IMG/VR virus record: IMGVR_UViG_2563366932_000014
Reading direction: 5' to 3' (one strand)
Source: a virus
Lineage: Duplodnaviria; Heunggongvirae; Uroviricota; Caudoviricetes
Length of the DNA stretch: 42,975 bases
Each line of letters starts with the position of its first letter. Within the stretch, counting starts at the first letter, position 1. The notes under the pieces are model-generated. The model was not told where the DNA came from. It saw only the letters and a program-made list of their open reading frames with translations, and did no database searches. A program made the position numbers and the translations under genes. Positions 1-42,975 of the stretch are shown one piece after another.

Positions 1-198
1 ATGGCACTGGACAGTTATGCATCTCCGAATATTATTCCGGAGCTAAGACAACCGAATGCCGCAGCAGGTAAGATCACGCTAGGGGGGCTGGACAGAATGG
101 CTGTTACGCCCAGTGTGAAGAAAAGAAGGCTAAGTATGGTAGAATTTCCATACGCACAGACCTTGTTATCCGACTATACAGCCTGGAAGGCACTATGA
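1..198 (+). CDS. hypothetical small protein (65 aa), first gene of a two-gene operon
   Basis: ORF starts at window position 1; its stop overlaps the next start (ATGA at 195-198), suggesting translational coupling; no recognisable family. Confidence 0.3.
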   Translation: MALDSYASPNIIPELRQPNAAAGKITLGGLDRMAVTPSVKKRRLSMVEFPYAQTLLSDYTAWKAL

Positions 199-983
199 CA
201 AATCTACAACTGGAAGAAAGATTTAGGGCGCTTGAGAAAGATTACGATGCGCTCATTTCCACAAAATATACTGCGCAGAACGTTCTCACTCACACTATGG
301 AAACCTATGTTGATTCTGGTAAATATAAAAACTGGATCGCCAGAGTGAAAAAGTTAATAGAGGACAGCTACGGAAAAGAGTCTGATTATTACAATGACTT
401 CAATACTGTAAACAGCAGGTGGTCTTCTAATTACAATACACTGATCAAAAGTTATAAACCGTTGTTTGATGCGGCGAGAGATGATCTTGCGCACTCTGCT
501 GTCAGTACTAATACTCCTCAAGAAGGTTCGCCGCTGAGCCTCGTACTTAATATTCTTAACAGGTTTCCGACCTTTGTTCGCCAGTTAAAGAGGCGGTACA
601 ACGGCCGTGCGCCGCTTGAAGTTAATGATGAGTATGACGTACAGGATTTGATTTATGCACTGCTGACGCTTCATTTTAATGATATTAGGGCGGAAGAGTA
701 TACCCCCAGCTTTGCGGGCGCGGCCTCAAGACAGGACTTTCTTTTGAAAAAAGAGAAAATTGTGATAGAGGTGAAGAAAACCCGTGAATCTCTGGGAGCG
801 GGTAAAGTTGGTGGAGAGTTGCTTATTGATATGGCGCGCTACCGCGCTCACCAAGACTGCGATACGTTGATCTTGTTTGTATATGACCCGGATTGCTACA
901 TAAATAATCCTTTGGGCGTGAAAACCGATCTGGAATCTAAAGACGCGGAAGGAAAAGTGAAGGTTGTTATTGCGCAGTTCTGA
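195..983 (+). CDS. hypothetical protein (262 aa) with C-terminal PD-(D/E)xK-like nuclease motif
   Basis: long ORF coupled to upstream ORF; C-terminal residues ..EYDVQDLIYALL.. and ..EKIVIEVKK.. fit a D...(D/E)xK pattern by eye; fold not verified. Confidence 0.5.
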   Translation: MTNLQLEERFRALEKDYDALISTKYTAQNVLTHTMETYVDSGKYKNWIARVKKLIEDSYGKESDYYNDFNTVNSRWSSNYNTLIKSYKPLFDAARDDLAHSAVSTNTPQEGSPLSLVLNILNRFPTFVRQLKRRYNGRAPLEVNDEYDVQDLIYALLTLHFNDIRAEEYTPSFAGAASRQDFLLKKEKIVIEVKKTRESLGAGKVGGELLIDMARYRAHQDCDTLILFVYDPDCYINNPLGVKTDLESKDAEGKVKVVIAQF

Positions 984-1016
984 CACGCTTAAGTGTCACC
1001 TTACAGGATTAGGTTT

Positions 1017-1065
1017 GCGGCCGTGCCAGCAGGACGAGCATGAAAAAGGCCGCTGGCACGGCCGG
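1017..1065. terminator. 13/14-bp inverted repeat hairpin between convergent genes (possible terminator)
   Basis: gcggccgtgccagc at 1017-1030 pairs with gctggcacggccgg at 1052-1065; only a weak T-run follows. Confidence 0.35.
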
Positions 1066-1070
1066 ATTTG

Positions 1071-1364
1071 TCATCTTTGCCAGGTCAAATCAAAATCTAC
1101 GTGAAAATCCGCAGGCTTAAGCTCGCAACTGCCACCACGCCCAATTAACGACGTTATGTTTACAACGTTTGAACCTGTTGAGATGGCAAGTTGAGTGTCA
1201 TCTGTAAACGTGATGATTAGCATTTCAGTCTGATGAACCTGTACTCCAGTTTTCTGAAAACCAATCTGGACAGATTTCACCGTTTTCCCAACCATTTCAC
1301 GGGCTTGATTGATAGAGTAATTAGCTTCAACTTGTAGGTCATTCCTGAACTTGGGTAGTGTCAT
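1071..1364 (-). CDS. hypothetical protein (97 aa)
   Basis: ORF with GAGGA-type RBS upstream of ATG; no recognisable family. Confidence 0.45.
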   Translation of the reverse strand: MTLPKFRNDLQVEANYSINQAREMVGKTVKSVQIGFQKTGVQVHQTEMLIITFTDDTQLAISTGSNVVNITSLIGRGGSCELKPADFHVDFDLTWQR

Positions 1365-1494
1365 TTTACATCCTCTTTAGTGAAGTTTTCGCTATTTAAA
1401 TCAGCAGCATTCCTTTTAAATCACTGGCATGTCAGCAGTGGATAGTCTGAGTGTAACGTCCAGTGAGGGGAATAAATATTGGTCAGACTTTGCA

Positions 1495-1520
1495 CAAAAG
1501 AGCCAACTATCGCGGGCTCT
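1495..1520 (-). terminator. putative rho-independent terminator downstream of the GIY-YIG gene
   Basis: stem agagcc/ggctct with 10-nt loop, followed on the minus strand by TTTT. Confidence 0.4.
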
Positions 1521-1577
1521 CTCTCATCATGTGCGAAAATTGACCACAATATGAAATCCAGTTCCATTCCGAAATCA

Positions 1578-2301
<724 letters not shown>

Positions 2302-2715
2302 TAGACTGGCCCCCTGAATCTCCAGACAACCAATATCACTTATTTAAGTGATAGTCTTAATACTAGTTTTTAGACTAGTCATTGGAGAGCAGATGATTGA
2401 TGTCTTAGGACCGGAGAAACGCAGACGGCGTACCACACAGGAAAAGATCGCAATTGTTCAGCAGAGCTTTGAACCAGGGATGACGGTCTCCCTCGTTGCC
2501 CGGCAACACGGTGTGGCAGCCAGCCAGTTATTTCTCTGGCGTAAGCAATACCAGGAAGGAAGTCTTACTGCTGTCGCCGCCGGAGAACAGGTTGTTCCTG
2601 CCTCTGAACTTGCTGCCGCCATGAAGCAGATTAAAGAACTCCAGCGCCTGCTCGGCAAGAAAACGATGGAAAATGAACTCCTCAAAGAAGCCGTTGAATA
2701 TGGACGGGCAAAAAA

Positions 2716-3735
<1,020 letters not shown>

Positions 3736-3833
3736 TCAATTGACAACTTATAATCCCTACTAGTTAGCATTATGATTTCCAGAGTGAGGAATATAAAAAT
3801 CTCTGTTTCTGGCACATAACAGCCCTTAAGATC

Positions 3834-3891
3834 GTAGCTCGCCATCATGGGGTGTCGGGGGGCGGAGGTTCAAATCCTCTCGTGCCGACCA
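3834..3891 (+). other. 3' fragment of a tRNA-Pro(GGG)-like gene (anticodon loop through CCA), probable attachment-site remnant
   Basis: ..tcatggggtgtcgggg..ggaggttcaaatcctctcgtgccgacca: T-arm GGAGG-TTCAAAT-CCTCT, acceptor 3' strand and CCA present; no 5' strand pairs with the acceptor, so not an intact tRNA. Confidence 0.6.
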
Positions 3892-3906
3892 AAAATCCCT
3901 TAAGAA

Positions 3907-3931
3907 CCAGCCTATTATGGCTGGTTTTTTT
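3907..3931 (+). terminator. rho-independent terminator just after the tRNA fragment
   Basis: stem ccagcc/ggctgg, loop tattat, then 7 T. Confidence 0.7.
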
Positions 3932-4099
3932 ATGATTGTTTTTTATGCGGAGAAATACCGGGGAATAATTGGGGTAAAACACCTTTAGGCTATTCACTTA
4001 GCCTACCACCATCAAAATCTTTCCGAATGTATCCATCTCTTTTTTCTTATGCAGCTAAAACGAAGTCTTGATACTGTTTATTTACACAGATAAGAATAA

Positions 4100-4119
4100 T
4101 ACTGTCTACAAACGCAGTA
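4100..4119. promoter_or_regulatory. LexA (SOS) box-like site upstream of the dinI-like remnant
   Basis: tactgtctacaaacgcagta matches the TACTGT-N8-ACAGTA pattern with one mismatch, about 14 bp before the ATG. Confidence 0.5.
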
Positions 4120-4132
4120 CAAAAGAAGTGTT

Positions 4133-4380
4133 ATGCGTATTGAGATCTCCATAGCCAAAGACAAAATGACCAAATGCCAAACGGCGCTGTGGACGCGTTA
4201 AAGGAAGAATTAACCCAACACATTGGCAAGCGTTATGACGATGTGGAGATGATCGTAAAAGCCACCAGCAACGATAGTTTTTCAGTTAGACATACTGCAG
4301 ATAAAGATTGAGCTAAAACTTTCGTTCAGGAAACTCTGAATGATACCTGAGAGTCTACTGAAGAGTTGTTTGTTCACTAG
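4133..4380 (+). pseudogene. dinI-like gene remnant (frameshift plus two in-frame TGA stops)
   Basis: frame A gives [11 protein letters not shown]..; a second frame continues ..[37 protein letters not shown].. then stop; AKTFVQETLNDT stop ESTEELFVH stop; the pieces together resemble DinI (recalled, not searched). Confidence 0.5.
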
Positions 4381-4675
4381 TTAGCACGTAGGAAATCATT
4401 CAATACTCGCACTATCGGAAGTTCACCAGCCAGTCGTAGCACGTCCTTGCAAACGACGTGCCTACGGTTTCAATCACCTCTCACCATCAATTCTATCAAT
4501 AATAATTAAACAGCGCCTAGACAAAATAAATAACAACAAGTCAACAACCTCGACAGGATGCCGATGGGATGATGAAGAGATAAGAAAGAATAACCAGTAA
4601 AGCCCTAAAACGTCAGCGTTCAGACGCGTTTTTTACTTAATCGGTAACAAATACGTTGTATCATAGCAAAATAAA

Positions 4676-6625
4676 ATGATTGTTCTAAATCAGATTAACT
4701 CCTCACTTTTGTACAATGTCGCTTACAGGTATACCATGAAATCCGAGACGCTAACTGTCCAACAACTTTTTCAAGACCGCCGACAATACTGTGTTCCATT
4801 CTATCAACGTGCCTATGTATGGACTCAGCAAGACCAGTGGTCAGCTCTACTGGAGGATATCCTAGAGAAAGTACAATCCCGGCTCTCGGGTACAAAACCA
4901 ACTCCCCATTTCCTTGGTGCGGTTGTACTGGAACCTCAATCAAAAAAAGGATTATTAGGTGTAGATTCCATACATATTATTGATGGTCAGCAACGATTGA
5001 CCACTCTTCAATATGTTCTGGCATCCATCCGATTAGCATTACGTGCTACGGATCTTTCCAGCTTAGAGGCTCTCATTTCGCCTTGCCTGAAAAACTCAAA
5101 CGAAGACACAATGCGAAATAAAGAAGTAGAACGCTTCAAACTGTGGCCAACTTTTCGGGATCAAACTCATTTTATTCAAAGTTTTAATGTTGAAAATATT
5201 GACGATCTCCGGGACGTATTCTCTGATAGTTTCACGCAGCATGGTACGTTGCGTAAGCATTTTAATCACCCGCCATCACTAGAAGCATTATGTTTTTTTA
5301 CTGAAGCCTTTATAAAATGGATTAAAATAGAAAACCACTCACCACAAGAAAATGCTGTAGCTCTAATTGAGGCTGTCTTAACAGATCTGAAACTGGTAAG
5401 CATATTTCTCGAAGCTGAAGATGATGCCCAAATAATTTTTGAAACATTAAATGGGCGAGGGGCGGAACTTCATGCTACGGATCTTATTCGCAACTATATC
5501 TTTATGTGCGCTGAGCATGAAAATATTAATGCTATTGAATTATATGAAAATGAGTGGAAGAGCTTTGAAGATAAATACTGGTCGGAAAAACAACGCCGTG
5601 GACGTATTAATAAACCACGCATGGAGTGGCTAGTACATGCGACATTGCAATCAGAAAGGCAACGTGAAATTGATCTGTCTCGCCTTTACAATGAGTATCG
5701 TGATTATGTAAGTAAGGACTTGTCTTCACAACGAGCAGATCTGCAAGTAAAGCGCCTCAAACAATATGCATCACAATATAAAGAATTGGTTGATGGTTTT
5801 GGCACAACCCCCATCTCACACTTTGGATATCGCATCGCAGACTATGATGTGACGACACTTTATCCGCTTGCTTTGTTCATTTCGATAGCTAACATCGCTG
5901 ATGATGAGAAAGCAGCCATGTATAATGATCTTGTCTCCTACGTAGTACGAAGAGCCGTATGTGGCCTGACGCCAAAGAATTACAACAATGTATTTATGAA
6001 TGTATTGCGGCACTTGGCTAAAACGGAAATTTCCAGTGTTGAGTTACGTAATATCCTCAATAACTTAAATGGCGAAGCCTCACGTTGGCCTGGTGACTCA
6101 GAATTTCTCAACGCTTGCATCAATGCTCCACTTTATCCTGGCAGGCTCGACGCACCGAAAATGCGCTCAATGTTAACGGAACTTGAAAGAGAACTTTGTC
6201 GCCAAGTAAAGACAGAAAAGCCTGATGTTCCAAATCTTTCTAATCTCGATATCGATCATCTTATGCCTCAAAGTTGGTATTCCTGTTGGCCTCTCGAAAA
6301 TGGTCGTATGGTGACAAATTCAGATGCTACGGTATTGAACCAAATTGTTCTGTCTGGAACCGATCTTACCCCTGAACAGCTACTGGTAAGGAAACGGCAA
6401 CAAGCGATATCTACTTTGGGAAATCTAACTTTGCTTAACCTTAGCGTAAACCGTTCTGTTCAGAATGCTGTATTTCTGAAAAAACGTGATGCTCTCATCG
6501 TCCACACCAATCTACGACTGAACATTCCACTTATAGTTAAGGATAAATGGGATGAGGATGAAATCCTGGAGCGGGGTAAAAAGTTGGGGGAAATTGCATT
6601 GAAAGTATGGCCAAAACACGATTAA
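4676..6625 (+). CDS. GmrSD-family (DUF262 N-terminal, DUF1524/HNH-like C-terminal) putative type IV modification-dependent restriction endonuclease
   Basis: 649-aa ORF; N-terminal ..FYQRAYVW.. and DGQQR motif; C-terminal ..DIDHLMPQS.. and ..NLSVNRSVQN.. His-Me finger-like; AT-rich by inspection; start may be the ATG at 4736. Confidence 0.65.
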   Translation: MIVLNQINSSLLYNVAYRYTMKSETLTVQQLFQDRRQYCVPFYQRAYVWTQQDQWSALLEDILEKVQSRLSGTKPTPHFLGAVVLEPQSKKGLLGVDSIHIIDGQQRLTTLQYVLASIRLALRATDLSSLEALISPCLKNSNEDTMRNKEVERFKLWPTFRDQTHFIQSFNVENIDDLRDVFSDSFTQHGTLRKHFNHPPSLEALCFFTEAFIKWIKIENHSPQENAVALIEAVLTDLKLVSIFLEAEDDAQIIFETLNGRGAELHATDLIRNYIFMCAEHENINAIELYENEWKSFEDKYWSEKQRRGRINKPRMEWLVHATLQSERQREIDLSRLYNEYRDYVSKDLSSQRADLQVKRLKQYASQYKELVDGFGTTPISHFGYRIADYDVTTLYPLALFISIANIADDEKAAMYNDLVSYVVRRAVCGLTPKNYNNVFMNVLRHLAKTEISSVELRNILNNLNGEASRWPGDSEFLNACINAPLYPGRLDAPKMRSMLTELERELCRQVKTEKPDVPNLSNLDIDHLMPQSWYSCWPLENGRMVTNSDATVLNQIVLSGTDLTPEQLLVRKRQQAISTLGNLTLLNLSVNRSVQNAVFLKKRDALIVHTNLRLNIPLIVKDKWDEDEILERGKKLGEIALKVWPKHD

Positions 6626-39673: not shown

Positions 39674-39781
39674 AAATCAGCACGTACGAATTCAAACTCT
39701 GCCATAAAAGAACATATAAGTAATTTATTAACATATAGATATAGGTTATATTACAAATTGAAAAATTATTGGAGAGCAACA

Positions 39782-40648
39782 ATGAATCAAAATCCATTCT
39801 CATTCTATGACTTTCTTGGATATTTAATACCAGGTGGTTTTTTTATCCTATTAATGTATTTCTGTGGTTTGACATTCGATCTAGATATTGTTATTGACTT
39901 AAGTGAATTGCTCAGAGGTCAAAGTCAAATCTTTGGCATTTTGAACTACGCTTCAATAGTTATTATATCTTATATAGCTGGACATTTTATTTCTATCACG
40001 TCAGCATTTTTTATCGAAAAATACATGAATAAAGAATTAGGATATCCTTCCAAATATCTATTTAAAAAATTGATAGATACCTCAGAAAGCATTTGTAGCC
40101 CATCATGCGATGAGAGAAGCGCTGATAAAAAAACAAAAATAAAGAATCGCATAATCAAATGCGTATTATGTCCAATAATACTATGGGATTTTATAACACA
40201 AAAACTATGTTATTCTCAATCTCTACCATTTCATTTAGCTAATACAACATGGTTAATGATCAAAGAAGGTTATGAGAAAAAGTTCATAACAAATCGCCAA
40301 TTATTACAAGATAAAAACGGACTTGATGATGATCTCTTCAGATTGGCATATCATTATGTTTATGAGTTTTCAAAACAACATCAAACAAAAATTCAAAACT
40401 ATGTTGCATTATATGGTTTTTGCAGAAACATATGTTTAATCTTTATAATTTCATTTTGGGTATCAGTTCCAACCTTTATTTATCGATTATGTACTCATAG
40501 TGATTATCTTTATAGTTTACTTTCAATAATGCTTAGCTTTTTCTTCGTCTATGTTTTCTATGTTGGTTTTGTTAAATTTTATAGAAGATATACTTTAGAA
40601 GTATTAATGGCATTTGCTGTACTTCAAAGTAACGACACTATTCGTTAA
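39782..40648 (+). CDS. very AT-rich four-TM membrane protein of unknown function
   Basis: two N-terminal and two C-terminal hydrophobic helices around a ~140-aa soluble region; GGAGAG RBS before the ATG at 39782; listed ORF starts at 39758. Confidence 0.55.
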   Translation: MNQNPFSFYDFLGYLIPGGFFILLMYFCGLTFDLDIVIDLSELLRGQSQIFGILNYASIVIISYIAGHFISITSAFFIEKYMNKELGYPSKYLFKKLIDTSESICSPSCDERSADKKTKIKNRIIKCVLCPIILWDFITQKLCYSQSLPFHLANTTWLMIKEGYEKKFITNRQLLQDKNGLDDDLFRLAYHYVYEFSKQHQTKIQNYVALYGFCRNICLIFIISFWVSVPTFIYRLCTHSDYLYSLLSIMLSFFFVYVFYVGFVKFYRRYTLEVLMAFAVLQSNDTIR

Positions 40649-40650
40649 TA

Positions 40651-40896
40651 ATGTTGCTCCCGTGTGCAGACGGGATAATGGAGAAACGTATGCTGAACCT
40701 CGATTGTGTTCCTATCTCAACTTATTGCAAAGAAACTGGCGAAACTCCTGAAGCAATAAACAAACGTGTACAGCGCGGTGTTTGGCGTGAAGGTGTTCAG
40801 GTTTTAAAGGTTGAAGGCGTTAAGGAGAGGTGGATTGATCTTAGTGAGGTTGCAAAATGGGCCAGACAAAACTGCTCAAACTACCGCGCGGCGTAA
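40651..40896 (+). CDS. excisionase-like protein
   Basis: small basic protein immediately upstream of and overlapping int; true start may be an internal Met. Confidence 0.55.
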   Translation: MLLPCADGIMEKRMLNLDCVPISTYCKETGETPEAINKRVQRGVWREGVQVLKVEGVKERWIDLSEVAKWARQNCSNYRAA

Positions 40897-42029
40897 CAAT
40901 CAGGAAACACCACCAGGGAGAAACGATCAATATAACTTTCACCTACAAAGGAGTTAGATGTCGTGAGCCGCTTTCCAATCTGGAAGTAACACCAAAGAAC
41001 ATTAAATACGCCGAGCGTACACTCGGCGAAATCCATAATAAGATCGAAAGGGGAACATTCATTTATGCAGAATATTTTCCCCGTTCTGCTCGTTTGAAAA
41101 TTTTTGGTAATGCTGCTGCAAGCAAAACGGTAAAGATGTACCTGGACGAATATCTTGAAATCTGCGAAACAAGAAAACTTTCACCCTCTACGATTGGTGG
41201 CTATAAAAAATGCCGTAGTGCGTTAGCCTCACTTCACATTTGCCCTGCAAGTGAATTAACACCAGCAACCCTGAAAGCGTGGATTCAAAGCCAGAAAACA
41301 ACCTTAAAAACCATTCGCAACCAGTTATCTTTCCTACGGTCAGCACTTGATGAAGCCGTGACCGATGGGGTACTTCAAATTAACCCCGTATCGTTAGTAA
41401 CAGCTTCGCGCTACCAAAGTGATAAGTCAGAAGCAGAAAGCAGCTATGTGGTTGATCCGCTATCACCAGCAGAAGTTGATGCATTACTAGCAGCAGCCGG
41501 AAACAAACAATGGGAAAATCTGTTCCGGTTCGCCATACATACAGGCCTGCGTAGTTCTGAATTATGTGCCCTACGATGGCATGATATCGACTTTGTTGGA
41601 AAAACAGCCCATGTTCAGAGCGCAAGTGTTGTCGGAGTTATCAAAGGAACAAAGACAAAAGCCGGTACCCGTAAAGTTGAACTGACTGAAGAAGCAATGT
41701 TGGCGTTGATAAACCAGAAGCCATTTACATTCATGAAGGATGCTACTGTCTTTGAAGATCCAAAGACCAATAAACCCTGGGCAAGTGCTGATGCAATTAG
41801 GAAAAAAGCATGGGTGCCAACATTGCGAAAAGCAGGTATTCGTTACAGAAACCCATATCAAACCAGGCATACATTCGCCACCAGCCATATCAGCCGGGGA
41901 GCAAACCTGTTTTGGCTTGCGGCTCAAATGGGCCATAAAGGGCCTGAAATGTTATTCAGGCACTATGGACAATACTTGAAAGAGTATGATGGGAGGGCAA
42001 GTATCAAGGATAAAAAGGCTTTATTTTAA
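40857..42029 (+). CDS. tyrosine integrase with N-terminal arm-binding domain
   Basis: N-terminal ..LPRGVTIRKHHQGETINITFTYKGVRCRE..; C-terminal R, H-x-x-R and Tyr (..HTFAT..FRHYGQYL..) motifs. Confidence 0.85.
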   Translation: MGQTKLLKLPRGVTIRKHHQGETINITFTYKGVRCREPLSNLEVTPKNIKYAERTLGEIHNKIERGTFIYAEYFPRSARLKIFGNAAASKTVKMYLDEYLEICETRKLSPSTIGGYKKCRSALASLHICPASELTPATLKAWIQSQKTTLKTIRNQLSFLRSALDEAVTDGVLQINPVSLVTASRYQSDKSEAESSYVVDPLSPAEVDALLAAAGNKQWENLFRFAIHTGLRSSELCALRWHDIDFVGKTAHVQSASVVGVIKGTKTKAGTRKVELTEEAMLALINQKPFTFMKDATVFEDPKTNKPWASADAIRKKAWVPTLRKAGIRYRNPYQTRHTFATSHISRGANLFWLAAQMGHKGPEMLFRHYGQYLKEYDGRASIKDKKALF

Positions 42030-42638
42030 GTCATTATGCCAATCGTCTACTGTTTGAAACCAAATTTTTAACCTTTGCATAAAGGTACGATCCTTTTTGG
42101 GAGGGTGGTACCTTTGAAAAGAAGTATGTAACGCTTCGATAACTCCCATACAAGCATCAATTACTTCTTGTGCTTTAACCGGGCGATCGGCATCTGAAAG
42201 CTTGTGAGCGACCTCACAATCCAGAGTTGCTTTCTCTAGTACAGATGAGAACACCTCGTCAGGTATATACAGTCCTCTGCTTTCCAAAATGCAAATCAGT
42301 TTGGAAACTTGTTGAGCTTTAGCCAAGATAGTTAACAAGTATGAAACAGAAGCCTTTGTTCTATCCTTTTGCAACCTTAACAATCGATGCTTTGATGCTC
42401 TAATTTTAGGTTGAGTTGTCTGACTGAGCCAATAGTTAGAAGAAATATCAGAAATTTCAATAACTAACTTTGAAATAGCATCAATAATTGATTTCGATTC
42501 AGAACGTGTCGCCAGTTTTACAGAATTATTGTACGCAACTCGCCATCCAATGAAAACTAAGCAGACGCTAACTACTGTGATACACCACGAATACTGTCCT
42601 ATTTGTGCTACTAATGACATTGGTTCCGTACTGATCAA
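42021..42638 (-). CDS. membrane-anchored hypothetical protein (205 aa)
   Basis: one N-terminal TM helix; AT-rich; convergent with and overlapping the int stop. Confidence 0.45.
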   Translation of the reverse strand: MISTEPMSLVAQIGQYSWCITVVSVCLVFIGWRVAYNNSVKLATRSESKSIIDAISKLVIEISDISSNYWLSQTTQPKIRASKHRLLRLQKDRTKASVSYLLTILAKAQQVSKLICILESRGLYIPDEVFSSVLEKATLDCEVAHKLSDADRPVKAQEVIDACMGVIEALHTSFQRYHPPKKDRTFMQRLKIWFQTVDDWHNDLK

Positions 42639-42648
42639 CTATCGCCTC

Positions 42649-42975
42649 TTATACTCTTTCTGGTTGTGCTAAATCAATAAATTTATCAATCTGTTCTTTG
42701 TAGAACGGAACATCACTTTTTATAATCAAACGTGCTTTAACGTTGGCTTTAGGTATCCCTTCCTTACGGATGAGACCTCCAAACGCCTCTTCTAAGAAAG
42801 AGGAACCAACACCCAGTGCTATACCGCGAAAATCAACCACAATCTCCTGTTCAGTACCCTTCAGCGCAGGCACCAAAAACTCTCTACGAAATCTTTCCGC
42901 ACTGTGTGGGCTATCCGTTGTGTAACGTCCGAAAGGTGTTCTGGAGAACTCCTTCGCTATGACGATATTTCTCAT
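42649..42975 (-). CDS. hypothetical small protein (108 aa), possibly STAS-like
   Basis: ATG is exactly at the window edge; 10-nt gap to the downstream gene; fold suggestion is tentative. Confidence 0.4.
   Translation of the reverse strand: MRNIVIAKEFSRTPFGRYTTDSPHSAERFRREFLVPALKGTEQEIVVDFRGIALGVGSSFLEEAFGGLIRKEGIPKANVKARLIIKSDVPFYKEQIDKFIDLAQPERV

Follow-up and report, generated by a model that had tools for sequence, protein, structure and literature searches.

The closest described relatives of the operon reported here are two systems in which a GHKL kinase acts on a small STAS protein. VapKSC is a three-gene operon encoding VapK (STAS-GHKL, 302 amino acids (aa)), VapS (STAS, 116 aa) and a VapC PIN toxin (Chambers et al., EMBO J 2026, PMC13373217). 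VapS binds and inhibits VapC through a C-terminal helix which reaches the toxin active site and is needed for inhibition, the phosphomimetic substitution S48E abolishes binding, and the operon gives ~2 logs of protection against phage Bas42 (PMC13373217). In CapK-CapS, found upstream of CBASS, Bub and Thoeris operons, CapK is a helix-turn-helix-STAS-GHKL kinase activated by single-stranded DNA and CapS is a STAS-winged-helix-turn-helix repressor; the trigger for both VapK and CapK is single-stranded DNA from phage infection or DNA damage, which is bound by an aromatic residue (F54 in VapK, W68 in CapK) at the STAS-GHKL interface (PMC13373217). Here we describe a 42,975-nucleotide (nt) stretch of Caudoviricetes DNA (IMG/VR record IMGVR_UViG_2563366932_000014; “the window” below means this whole stretch), which is a prophage integrated at the transfer-messenger RNA (tmRNA) gene ssrA in E. 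coli phylogroup-B2-type strains (UTI89, S88, APEC O1 and others), and the operon of three genes, A, B and C, which crosses its right-hand edge. The operon is prophage cargo lying between the integrase gene int and the right attachment site, attR. The window holds its 3′ two-thirds, and we consider it probable that this exchangeable cargo encodes a VapKSC-like, kinase-gated membrane effector.

Gene order and products of the operon

Window positions 40600-42975 are 100% identical to E. coli UTI89 (NC_007946.1, our locus L001, in which window position 42975 corresponds to 14376) and likewise to S88, APEC O1, IHE3034, NU14, ATCC 11775 and many others. In UTI89 ssrA lies immediately left of the window start, the window being the prophage that follows it, and extending the window's other end into this genome showed a third gene, A, beyond 42975. 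The features of the region are:

40651..40896, plus strand: probable excisionase, an 81-aa open reading frame upstream of int and overlapping it
40857..42029, plus strand: int, a tyrosine integrase (Pfam Arm-DNA-bind_2 and Phage_integrase)
42021..42638, minus strand: gene C, 205 aa from a TTG start
42645..42650, minus strand: AAGAGG, Shine-Dalgarno sequence for gene C, overlapping the TAA stop of B, 6 nt before the TTG
42649..42975, minus strand: gene B, 108 aa (WP_001244589.1)
L001 14381-15292, outside the window, minus strand: gene A, 303 aa (WP_000154254.1)
L001 15446-15468, ~1.07 kb past the window end: attR core, GGACTCGGGTTCAACTCCCGCCAGC, a partial copy of the ssrA 3′ end
L001 16153: host gene glaH, beyond attR in UTI89

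The first-pass annotation, made from the window alone, had described two coupled, AT-rich minus-strand genes of 108 and 205 aa which converge on int, overlap its stop and belong to an operon starting outside the window, and each part of this description holds. Both open reading frames are present, and A, B and C are translationally coupled: the stop of B precedes the TTG of C by 10 nt and is overlapped by the Shine-Dalgarno sequence of C, whilst in UTI89 the TGA of A lies 4 nt upstream of the ATG of B, which is preceded at 7 nt by AGGAGA. RefSeq starts gene C at an ATG at 42620, giving a 199-aa product (WP_000060412.1). The stop codons of int (TAA, 42027-42029) and C (TAA, 42021-42023, minus strand) fall in a 9-bp tail-to-tail overlap, and 42021-42975, at 39.8% GC, is poorer in GC than the window (49.7%) and the structural module (55.8%). 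The genes are real: homologues at identities down to 28-48% keep the same three-gene order. A promoter and terminator scan of the operon region returned sites no more numerous than in shuffled sequence, and no promoter is claimed.

The window edge falls on the first base of B's ATG. The same is seen among other IMG/VR provirus records (L023, L024, L026, L027), several of which stop exactly at this ATG and others at the start of gene A, so that provirus boundary calling splits the operon and omits attR. We also considered that B might be only the C-terminal part of a larger fusion protein, an idea prompted by its alignment with positions 341-439 of the 441-aa phrog_5816 (E 1.4e-17), and rejected it on the in-frame TGA of A 4 nt upstream and B's own AGGAGA ribosome-binding site. 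The alignment does show that some longer phage proteins end in a DUF4325 domain (see below).

Gene A encodes a fusion of a STAS domain with a GHKL serine kinase of the SpoIIAB/RsbW type, and the kinase keeps every ATP-binding motif; the N-box (E155/N159/H163), G1 (D201xGxG205) and G2 (G243xG245) are invariant across 42 homologues. The best structural matches of its AlphaFold2 model (predicted local distance difference test (pLDDT) 86.6, predicted template modelling score 0.88) are SpoIIAB/RsbW and STAS domains, and a sequence search of the PDB with the A profile gave a marginal match to RsbW (E 0.42). The protein's own N-terminal STAS domain keeps a DLSxVxF-A-S/T-AAA motif (residues 42-63), in which 40 of the 42 homologues have Ser or Thr at position 50, where STAS domains canonically carry the phospho-acceptor; autophosphorylation or pseudo-substrate control of A is thus a possibility raised by this motif.

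B, which had been called possibly STAS-like, proved in the domain search to be a single-domain STAS-like protein of Pfam family DUF4325 (E 6.2e-14; 51.9 bits against a gathering cutoff of 23). The stretch G57-S58-S59-F-L-E-E is invariant in 13 B homologues, and Ser58, aligned with the VapS phospho-site Ser48 by both BLASTP and hhalign, is the candidate phospho-acceptor. PDB sequence searches with B and with its profile returned chance matches only and did not recover the VapS-VapC crystal structure. We propose that B is a phospho-switch or antitoxin-like partner.

The single N-terminal transmembrane helix that had been noted in the 205-aa protein, preceded by a short N-terminus, is found both by hydropathy (residues ~17-35) and in the structure model of C (pLDDT 80), in which a long helix starts in the membrane and continues into a helical bundle. 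The predicted fold is a generic four-helix bundle, matching generic helical-bundle and sensor/adaptor domains. Because positive charges follow the transmembrane helix (R33, K41, R45, K49), the bundle should be cytoplasmic by the positive-inside rule, with only ~16 residues predicted on the outer side of the membrane. Polar motifs that are strictly invariant (ATRSESK, immediately following the membrane segment, TLDCE and HxP) indicate a specific site and not simply a hydrophobic plug. C belongs to phrog_30059 and matched no family in Pfam, NCBIfam or PADLOC, whilst a PDB sequence search gave chance matches only. An exhaustive hidden Markov model search of 1.84 billion proteins recovered 153 clusters of C relatives (50% identity), nearly all of 65-290 aa, among which there were no clear domain fusions. 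C is the proposed effector.

Homologues of C (29 clusters, word search) and of A (more than 160 clusters) were traced to contigs, together with 25 further IMG/VR loci. The order A-B-C was kept in 34 of the 34 related loci with enough upstream sequence, with gaps of 4 and 10 nt, across Enterobacterales and Vibrionaceae. Conservation always ranks B above A above C, with identities to the Enterobacter proteins of 89, 78 and 52% and to those of Photobacterium of 48, 42 and 28%, respectively. A tyrosine integrase follows C directly and convergently in 30 of 40 loci, and at least four integrase families adjoin the trio:

Arm-DNA-bind_2 type, found at ssrA and at another site in the chromosome
A 295-aa integrase, beside recE-like and DUF4224 genes
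A 370-aa family
Truncated integrase of a decayed element lying between the lipA and lipB loci

Elsewhere the trio lies after tail genes (a Yersinia prophage), by a lambda-type terminase or by an IS3 element, and on a Photobacterium chromosome it stands alone.

Set beside VapKSC (VapK and VapS sequences were taken from the AlphaFold files of PMC13373217), the trio has the same order of kinase, STAS protein and third protein, and both occur in mobile or defence-type contexts. In both VapK and A, which are nearly equal in length (302 and 303 aa), a STAS domain at the N-terminus precedes a C-terminal GHKL domain whose ATP site is intact, and the A profile aligns collinearly with VapK over the kinase domain (hhalign E 1.6e-4, probability 50%). 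VapS, like B, is a single-STAS DUF4325 protein of ~110 aa (E 2.7e-17 for the Escherichia VapS) with a conserved Ser at the aligned position (S48 and S58). The third proteins differ: VapC is a PIN nuclease, whereas C is a single-pass membrane four-helix-bundle protein with no detectable relation to it. CapK-CapS likewise has a STAS-containing GHKL kinase directly before a STAS protein with a conserved phospho-acceptor Ser, and has the signalling logic, from kinase to STAS protein to partner release, that is proposed here for the trio. Unlike CapK, however, A has no N-terminal helix-turn-helix; unlike CapS, B (108 aa, DUF4325 only) has no winged-helix DNA-binding domain; and no immune operon lies downstream, only C and then the convergent int. 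Unlike the partner-switching modules SpoIIAB-SpoIIAA and RsbW-RsbV, which pair an anti-sigma-factor kinase with an anti-anti-sigma STAS protein, the trio has no sigma factor and no PP2C phosphatase, its kinase has its own N-terminal STAS domain and it is a mobile unit carried by phages. PADLOC has no model matching A, B or C; this silence is uninformative, because PADLOC v2 (2023) also misses VapK and VapS. Literature searches with the RefSeq accessions and DUF4325 found no functional study of the trio, and UTI89-type loci are not listed in the supplements of PMC13373217.

An exchangeable slot between int and attR

The first-pass annotation had seen in these genes int-proximal cargo cut by the window edge and had allowed that they might be flanking host DNA, since no att site or tRNA was visible after int. 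The window indeed contains no tRNA, no tmRNA and no copy of the ssrA 3′ repeat, and the attachment site lies beyond it. In UTI89 a 153-bp AT-rich leader separates gene A from the attR core GGACTCGGGTTCAACTCCCGCCAGC, which copies the ssrA 3′ end apart from one mismatch and the missing CCA. Because this partial ssrA 3′ end lies beyond gene A, the operon is inside the element. The same repeat follows the cargo in further loci (L003-L006 and L013-L016). In strain 1EC213 the same prophage, int and trio are followed by an ssrA fragment and then by a second integrase and island, not by glaH, and the phage-side flank of attR is identical in 1EC213 and UTI89. We considered a composite island, made of a separate islet next to the prophage, and rejected it, as the attR phage-side flank and the trio are identical in the two strains despite their different downstream neighbours.

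The trio is also rare. It is present, always at ≥99% identity, in 131 of 5,426 complete E. coli genomes (2.4%), whilst the int/xis segment is present in 412. The genes were not found as conserved core genes of non-lysogenic genomes. In genomes with that segment and without the trio, homology ends at window position 41992, ~12 codons before the end of int, and the slot is filled by unrelated genes in prophages whose int is 95-98% identical. The operon thus both lies inside the att repeats and varies among prophages sharing an integrase. Alternative cargo was inspected in three genomes lacking the trio: strain SCU-101 has two hypothetical genes, an ST131 strain has one gene and an O103:H2 strain has a ParA-like ATPase and two genes, and in SCU-101 and the ST131 strain the ssrA fragment again follows the alternative cargo. 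The slot genes at these three loci are:

L005 8444-9632: genes of 127 aa and 271 aa
L006 8413-9192: a gene of 259 aa
L007 8625-10547: a ParA/AAA_31 ATPase with genes of 137 aa and 221 aa

None of these had a convincing PADLOC match, and they are candidates for further prophage accessory systems. Another group of loci (L013-L016, 6001-7889), recovered via a protein that NCBI names from Salmonella and of which at least L016 is an E. coli-type ssrA-glaH site, combines a 98% identical Int with a strongly divergent trio (52, 70 and 42% identity for A, B and C, respectively). The group is an allelic replacement by a distant homologue of the system in the same slot. At least four other gene sets therefore occupy the slot (those of L005, L006 and L007 and the divergent trio). 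The exchange breakpoint falls inside int (window 41985-42029, from L005-L007 and L013), where the last ~10-12 Int residues vary with the cargo; the last ~12 int codons, from ~41993, are part of the exchangeable module. The int-attR junction behaves as an exchangeable accessory slot.

Integrase-proximal cargo hotspots are a familiar feature of temperate phages and their satellites, among them the P2/P4 hotspots and the gtr clusters beside int in Shigella phages. As in these, the operon comprises AT-rich accessory genes with their own leader, placed between int and att and swapped among near-identical prophages; unlike them, the site here is the int-attR junction of an ssrA prophage, with its breakpoint inside the last ~12 codons of int. 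The operon DNA had no match in phage or plasmid collections, distant mode included, and a one-genome-per-species scan, whose pattern method is narrow, found a single locus.

Two genomes show disruption by insertion sequences. In FDAARGOS_1303 an IS3-family element is inserted between B and C (L048, 2135-3363), and in MS20673 (L004) int, C, B and most of A have been lost through an IS3-associated deletion. Neither event discriminates between the models discussed below.

A proposed kinase-gated membrane effector and alternative readings

We favour as probable a reading in which the trio works as VapKSC does, with the PIN toxin replaced by a membrane protein. In resting lysogens B would bind C and keep it inactive. 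A trigger, which by analogy with VapK and CapK could be single-stranded DNA from phage infection or DNA damage, would activate the kinase A; A would phosphorylate Ser58 of B, C would be released, and the freed C would act at the inner membrane to cause growth arrest or aborted infection, shielding the lysogen population from other phages. That B binds C, what triggers A and how C acts are all inferred by analogy with VapKSC. The other end of the prophage, with GmrSD and a protein with a DpnII/MboI-type domain, was counted as supporting context for a role in defence.

Several observations weigh against this reading. C has no recognisable toxin or enzyme fold, only the generic four-helix bundle, and its toxicity, its binding by B and phage defence are all carried over from the VapKSC analogy. 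A trigger of single-stranded DNA or DNA damage would also fire on SOS induction of the carrier prophage, which is awkward for a pure abortive-infection role; that prophage has LexA-like S24 repressors. B stops where the STAS core of VapS stops and has no counterpart of VapS residues ~94-116, the C-terminal inhibitory helix; B and VapS share ~21% identity, and hhalign probability is ~50% for both the A/VapK and the B/VapS pair. Motif comparison places A F48 at the position of VapK F54, yet this position is aromatic (F/Y/W/H) in only 30 of 42 homologues. Because C is not a PIN protein, B lacks the inhibitory helix and the sequences are remotely related, the trio, although it resembles VapKSC with a different third protein, is not classed as VapKSC.

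The alternative that survives best, which we nevertheless consider unlikely, is a non-lethal partner-switching regulator, in which the kinase and STAS protein control C as a membrane regulatory or scaffold protein (anti-sigma-like, or a signalling adaptor) and the output is host or prophage expression, envelope physiology or the lysis-lysogeny decision, with no killing. That the best structural matches of A are anti-sigma-factor kinases fits this, as do the purely regulatory nature of the sister system CapK-CapS, the likeness of C to four-helix-bundle sensor/adaptor domains rather than to a toxin, and its invariant polar motifs, which suggest specific binding. Against this, no DNA-binding domain, sigma factor or phosphatase lies in or beside the operon, and neither a sigma factor nor a PP2C phosphatase accompanies it in any locus examined; the trio moves as a self-contained unit among unrelated phages and hosts, which argues against a dedicated host or phage target, and its slot turns over like defence or moron cargo.

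Less likely again is superinfection exclusion, in which C, seated in the inner membrane, would stop infecting phages at DNA entry or at some other early stage, with A and B confined to modulating C and without cell death. Superinfection exclusion commonly takes the form of small membrane proteins encoded by prophages, and C, a small single-pass inner-membrane protein in a prophage moron position, would suit such a role; it is also the fastest evolving of the three (52% in Enterobacter, against 78% for A and 89% for B), as expected of contact with phage proteins. Against this, nearly all of C would be cytoplasmic, and a strictly conserved, ATP-competent kinase with a STAS partner would be superfluous for a passive block.

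We think it improbable that the trio is at heart an addiction module which stabilises the prophage or island by post-segregational killing, with B as labile antitoxin, C as stable toxin and defence incidental. The toxin-antitoxin-like architecture suggested by VapKSC, the position of the operon at the very edge of the element and the persistence of the trio in the decayed element between the lipA and lipB loci are in its favour, whilst the kinase, which a simple addiction module could dispense with, is as conserved as the other parts. Neither the tolerated IS3 insertion between B and C nor the deletion in MS20673 is diagnostic, as both are compatible with any toxin model.

A host origin, with the genes being core or ancestral parts of the E. 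coli chromosome that flanks the prophage, has next to nothing left to commend it beyond the lack of an att site or tRNA after int inside the window and the host gene glaH within 2 kb, and is excluded by the partial ssrA 3′ end beyond the operon, its presence in only 2.4% of complete E. coli genomes, the 1EC213 context, the other genes that occupy the slot in related prophages and the homologous trios beside other integrases at other chromosomal sites.

Surrounding features of the prophage and significance of the operon

The carrier prophage has lambdoid-type regulatory genes, a contractile tail and the S24 repressors mentioned above. The call of a probable excisionase upstream of int is based on Citrobacter phage phiNP, in which the homologous stretch is annotated as an excisionase and a DUF3596 integrase; RefSeq has a shorter, 68-aa product inside the 81-aa open reading frame. 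The attL-proximal end of the prophage (window 195-6625) carries defence-type cargo, and a further gene, of very low GC content, lies just upstream of the excisionase gene and int:

195-983: protein with a DpnII/MboI-type restriction-endonuclease domain
1575-2219: LEM-3-like GIY-YIG protein
2348-2758 and 2716-3621: orfA and orfB, respectively, of an IS3-family element
4676-6625: GmrSD type IV restriction enzyme
39758-40648, plus strand: 296-aa open reading frame, GC 28.4%, apparently a multi-pass membrane protein

The GIY-YIG gene is apparently truncated in the window relative to UTI89, seemingly by the IS3-family element, which would explain most of the ~1.3 kb by which the window exceeds the UTI89 length. 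The 296-aa open reading frame matches phrog_12528 and, though only weakly, Csx27, an accessory protein of type VI-B CRISPR systems (PADLOC E 1.4e-5). Both the UTI89-type and the SCU-101 prophages carry it, whereas two small phage genes stand at its position in the ST131 and O103:H2 relatives, and it thus seems to be another exchangeable moron. In UTI89, beyond the window, ~170 bp on the downstream side of the ssrA core, terminator hairpin included, are duplicated at attL and attR with ~93% identity (L002 14045-14200 and L001 15470-15625), and from the attR copy 5 nt at the 3′ end of ssrA are missing (TCCAC, which includes part of the CCA terminus). An earlier element of similar kind at ssrA may have left this duplication as its footprint.

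Kinase/STAS switches were tied to bacterial immunity only in 2026, with CapKS and VapKSC, and the operon described here couples such a switch to a completely different third protein, a membrane protein without an annotated family. It does so in well-studied strains (UTI89, S88, APEC O1, IHE3034, NU14 and the E. coli type strain) and is widespread in Enterobacterales prophages. Since provirus callers halve the operon at the ATG of B, such systems are systematically truncated in viral catalogues. We suggest tentatively, as a possibility short of an even chance, that the trio is a distinct prophage immune or abortive-infection family, made up of a kinase activated by infection or nucleic acid, a DUF4325 antitoxin and a membrane effector of a new protein family. 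If so, it would form with VapKSC and CapKS a modular class in which one kinase/STAS switch is joined to interchangeable outputs (a repressor, a PIN nuclease or a membrane effector), and ssrA prophages of extraintestinal pathogenic E. coli would hot-swap this switch at their int-attR junction. Were the model to hold, it would extend this modular logic, add a new family of membrane effectors and mark the int-attR junction as a site at which prophages swap accessory systems.

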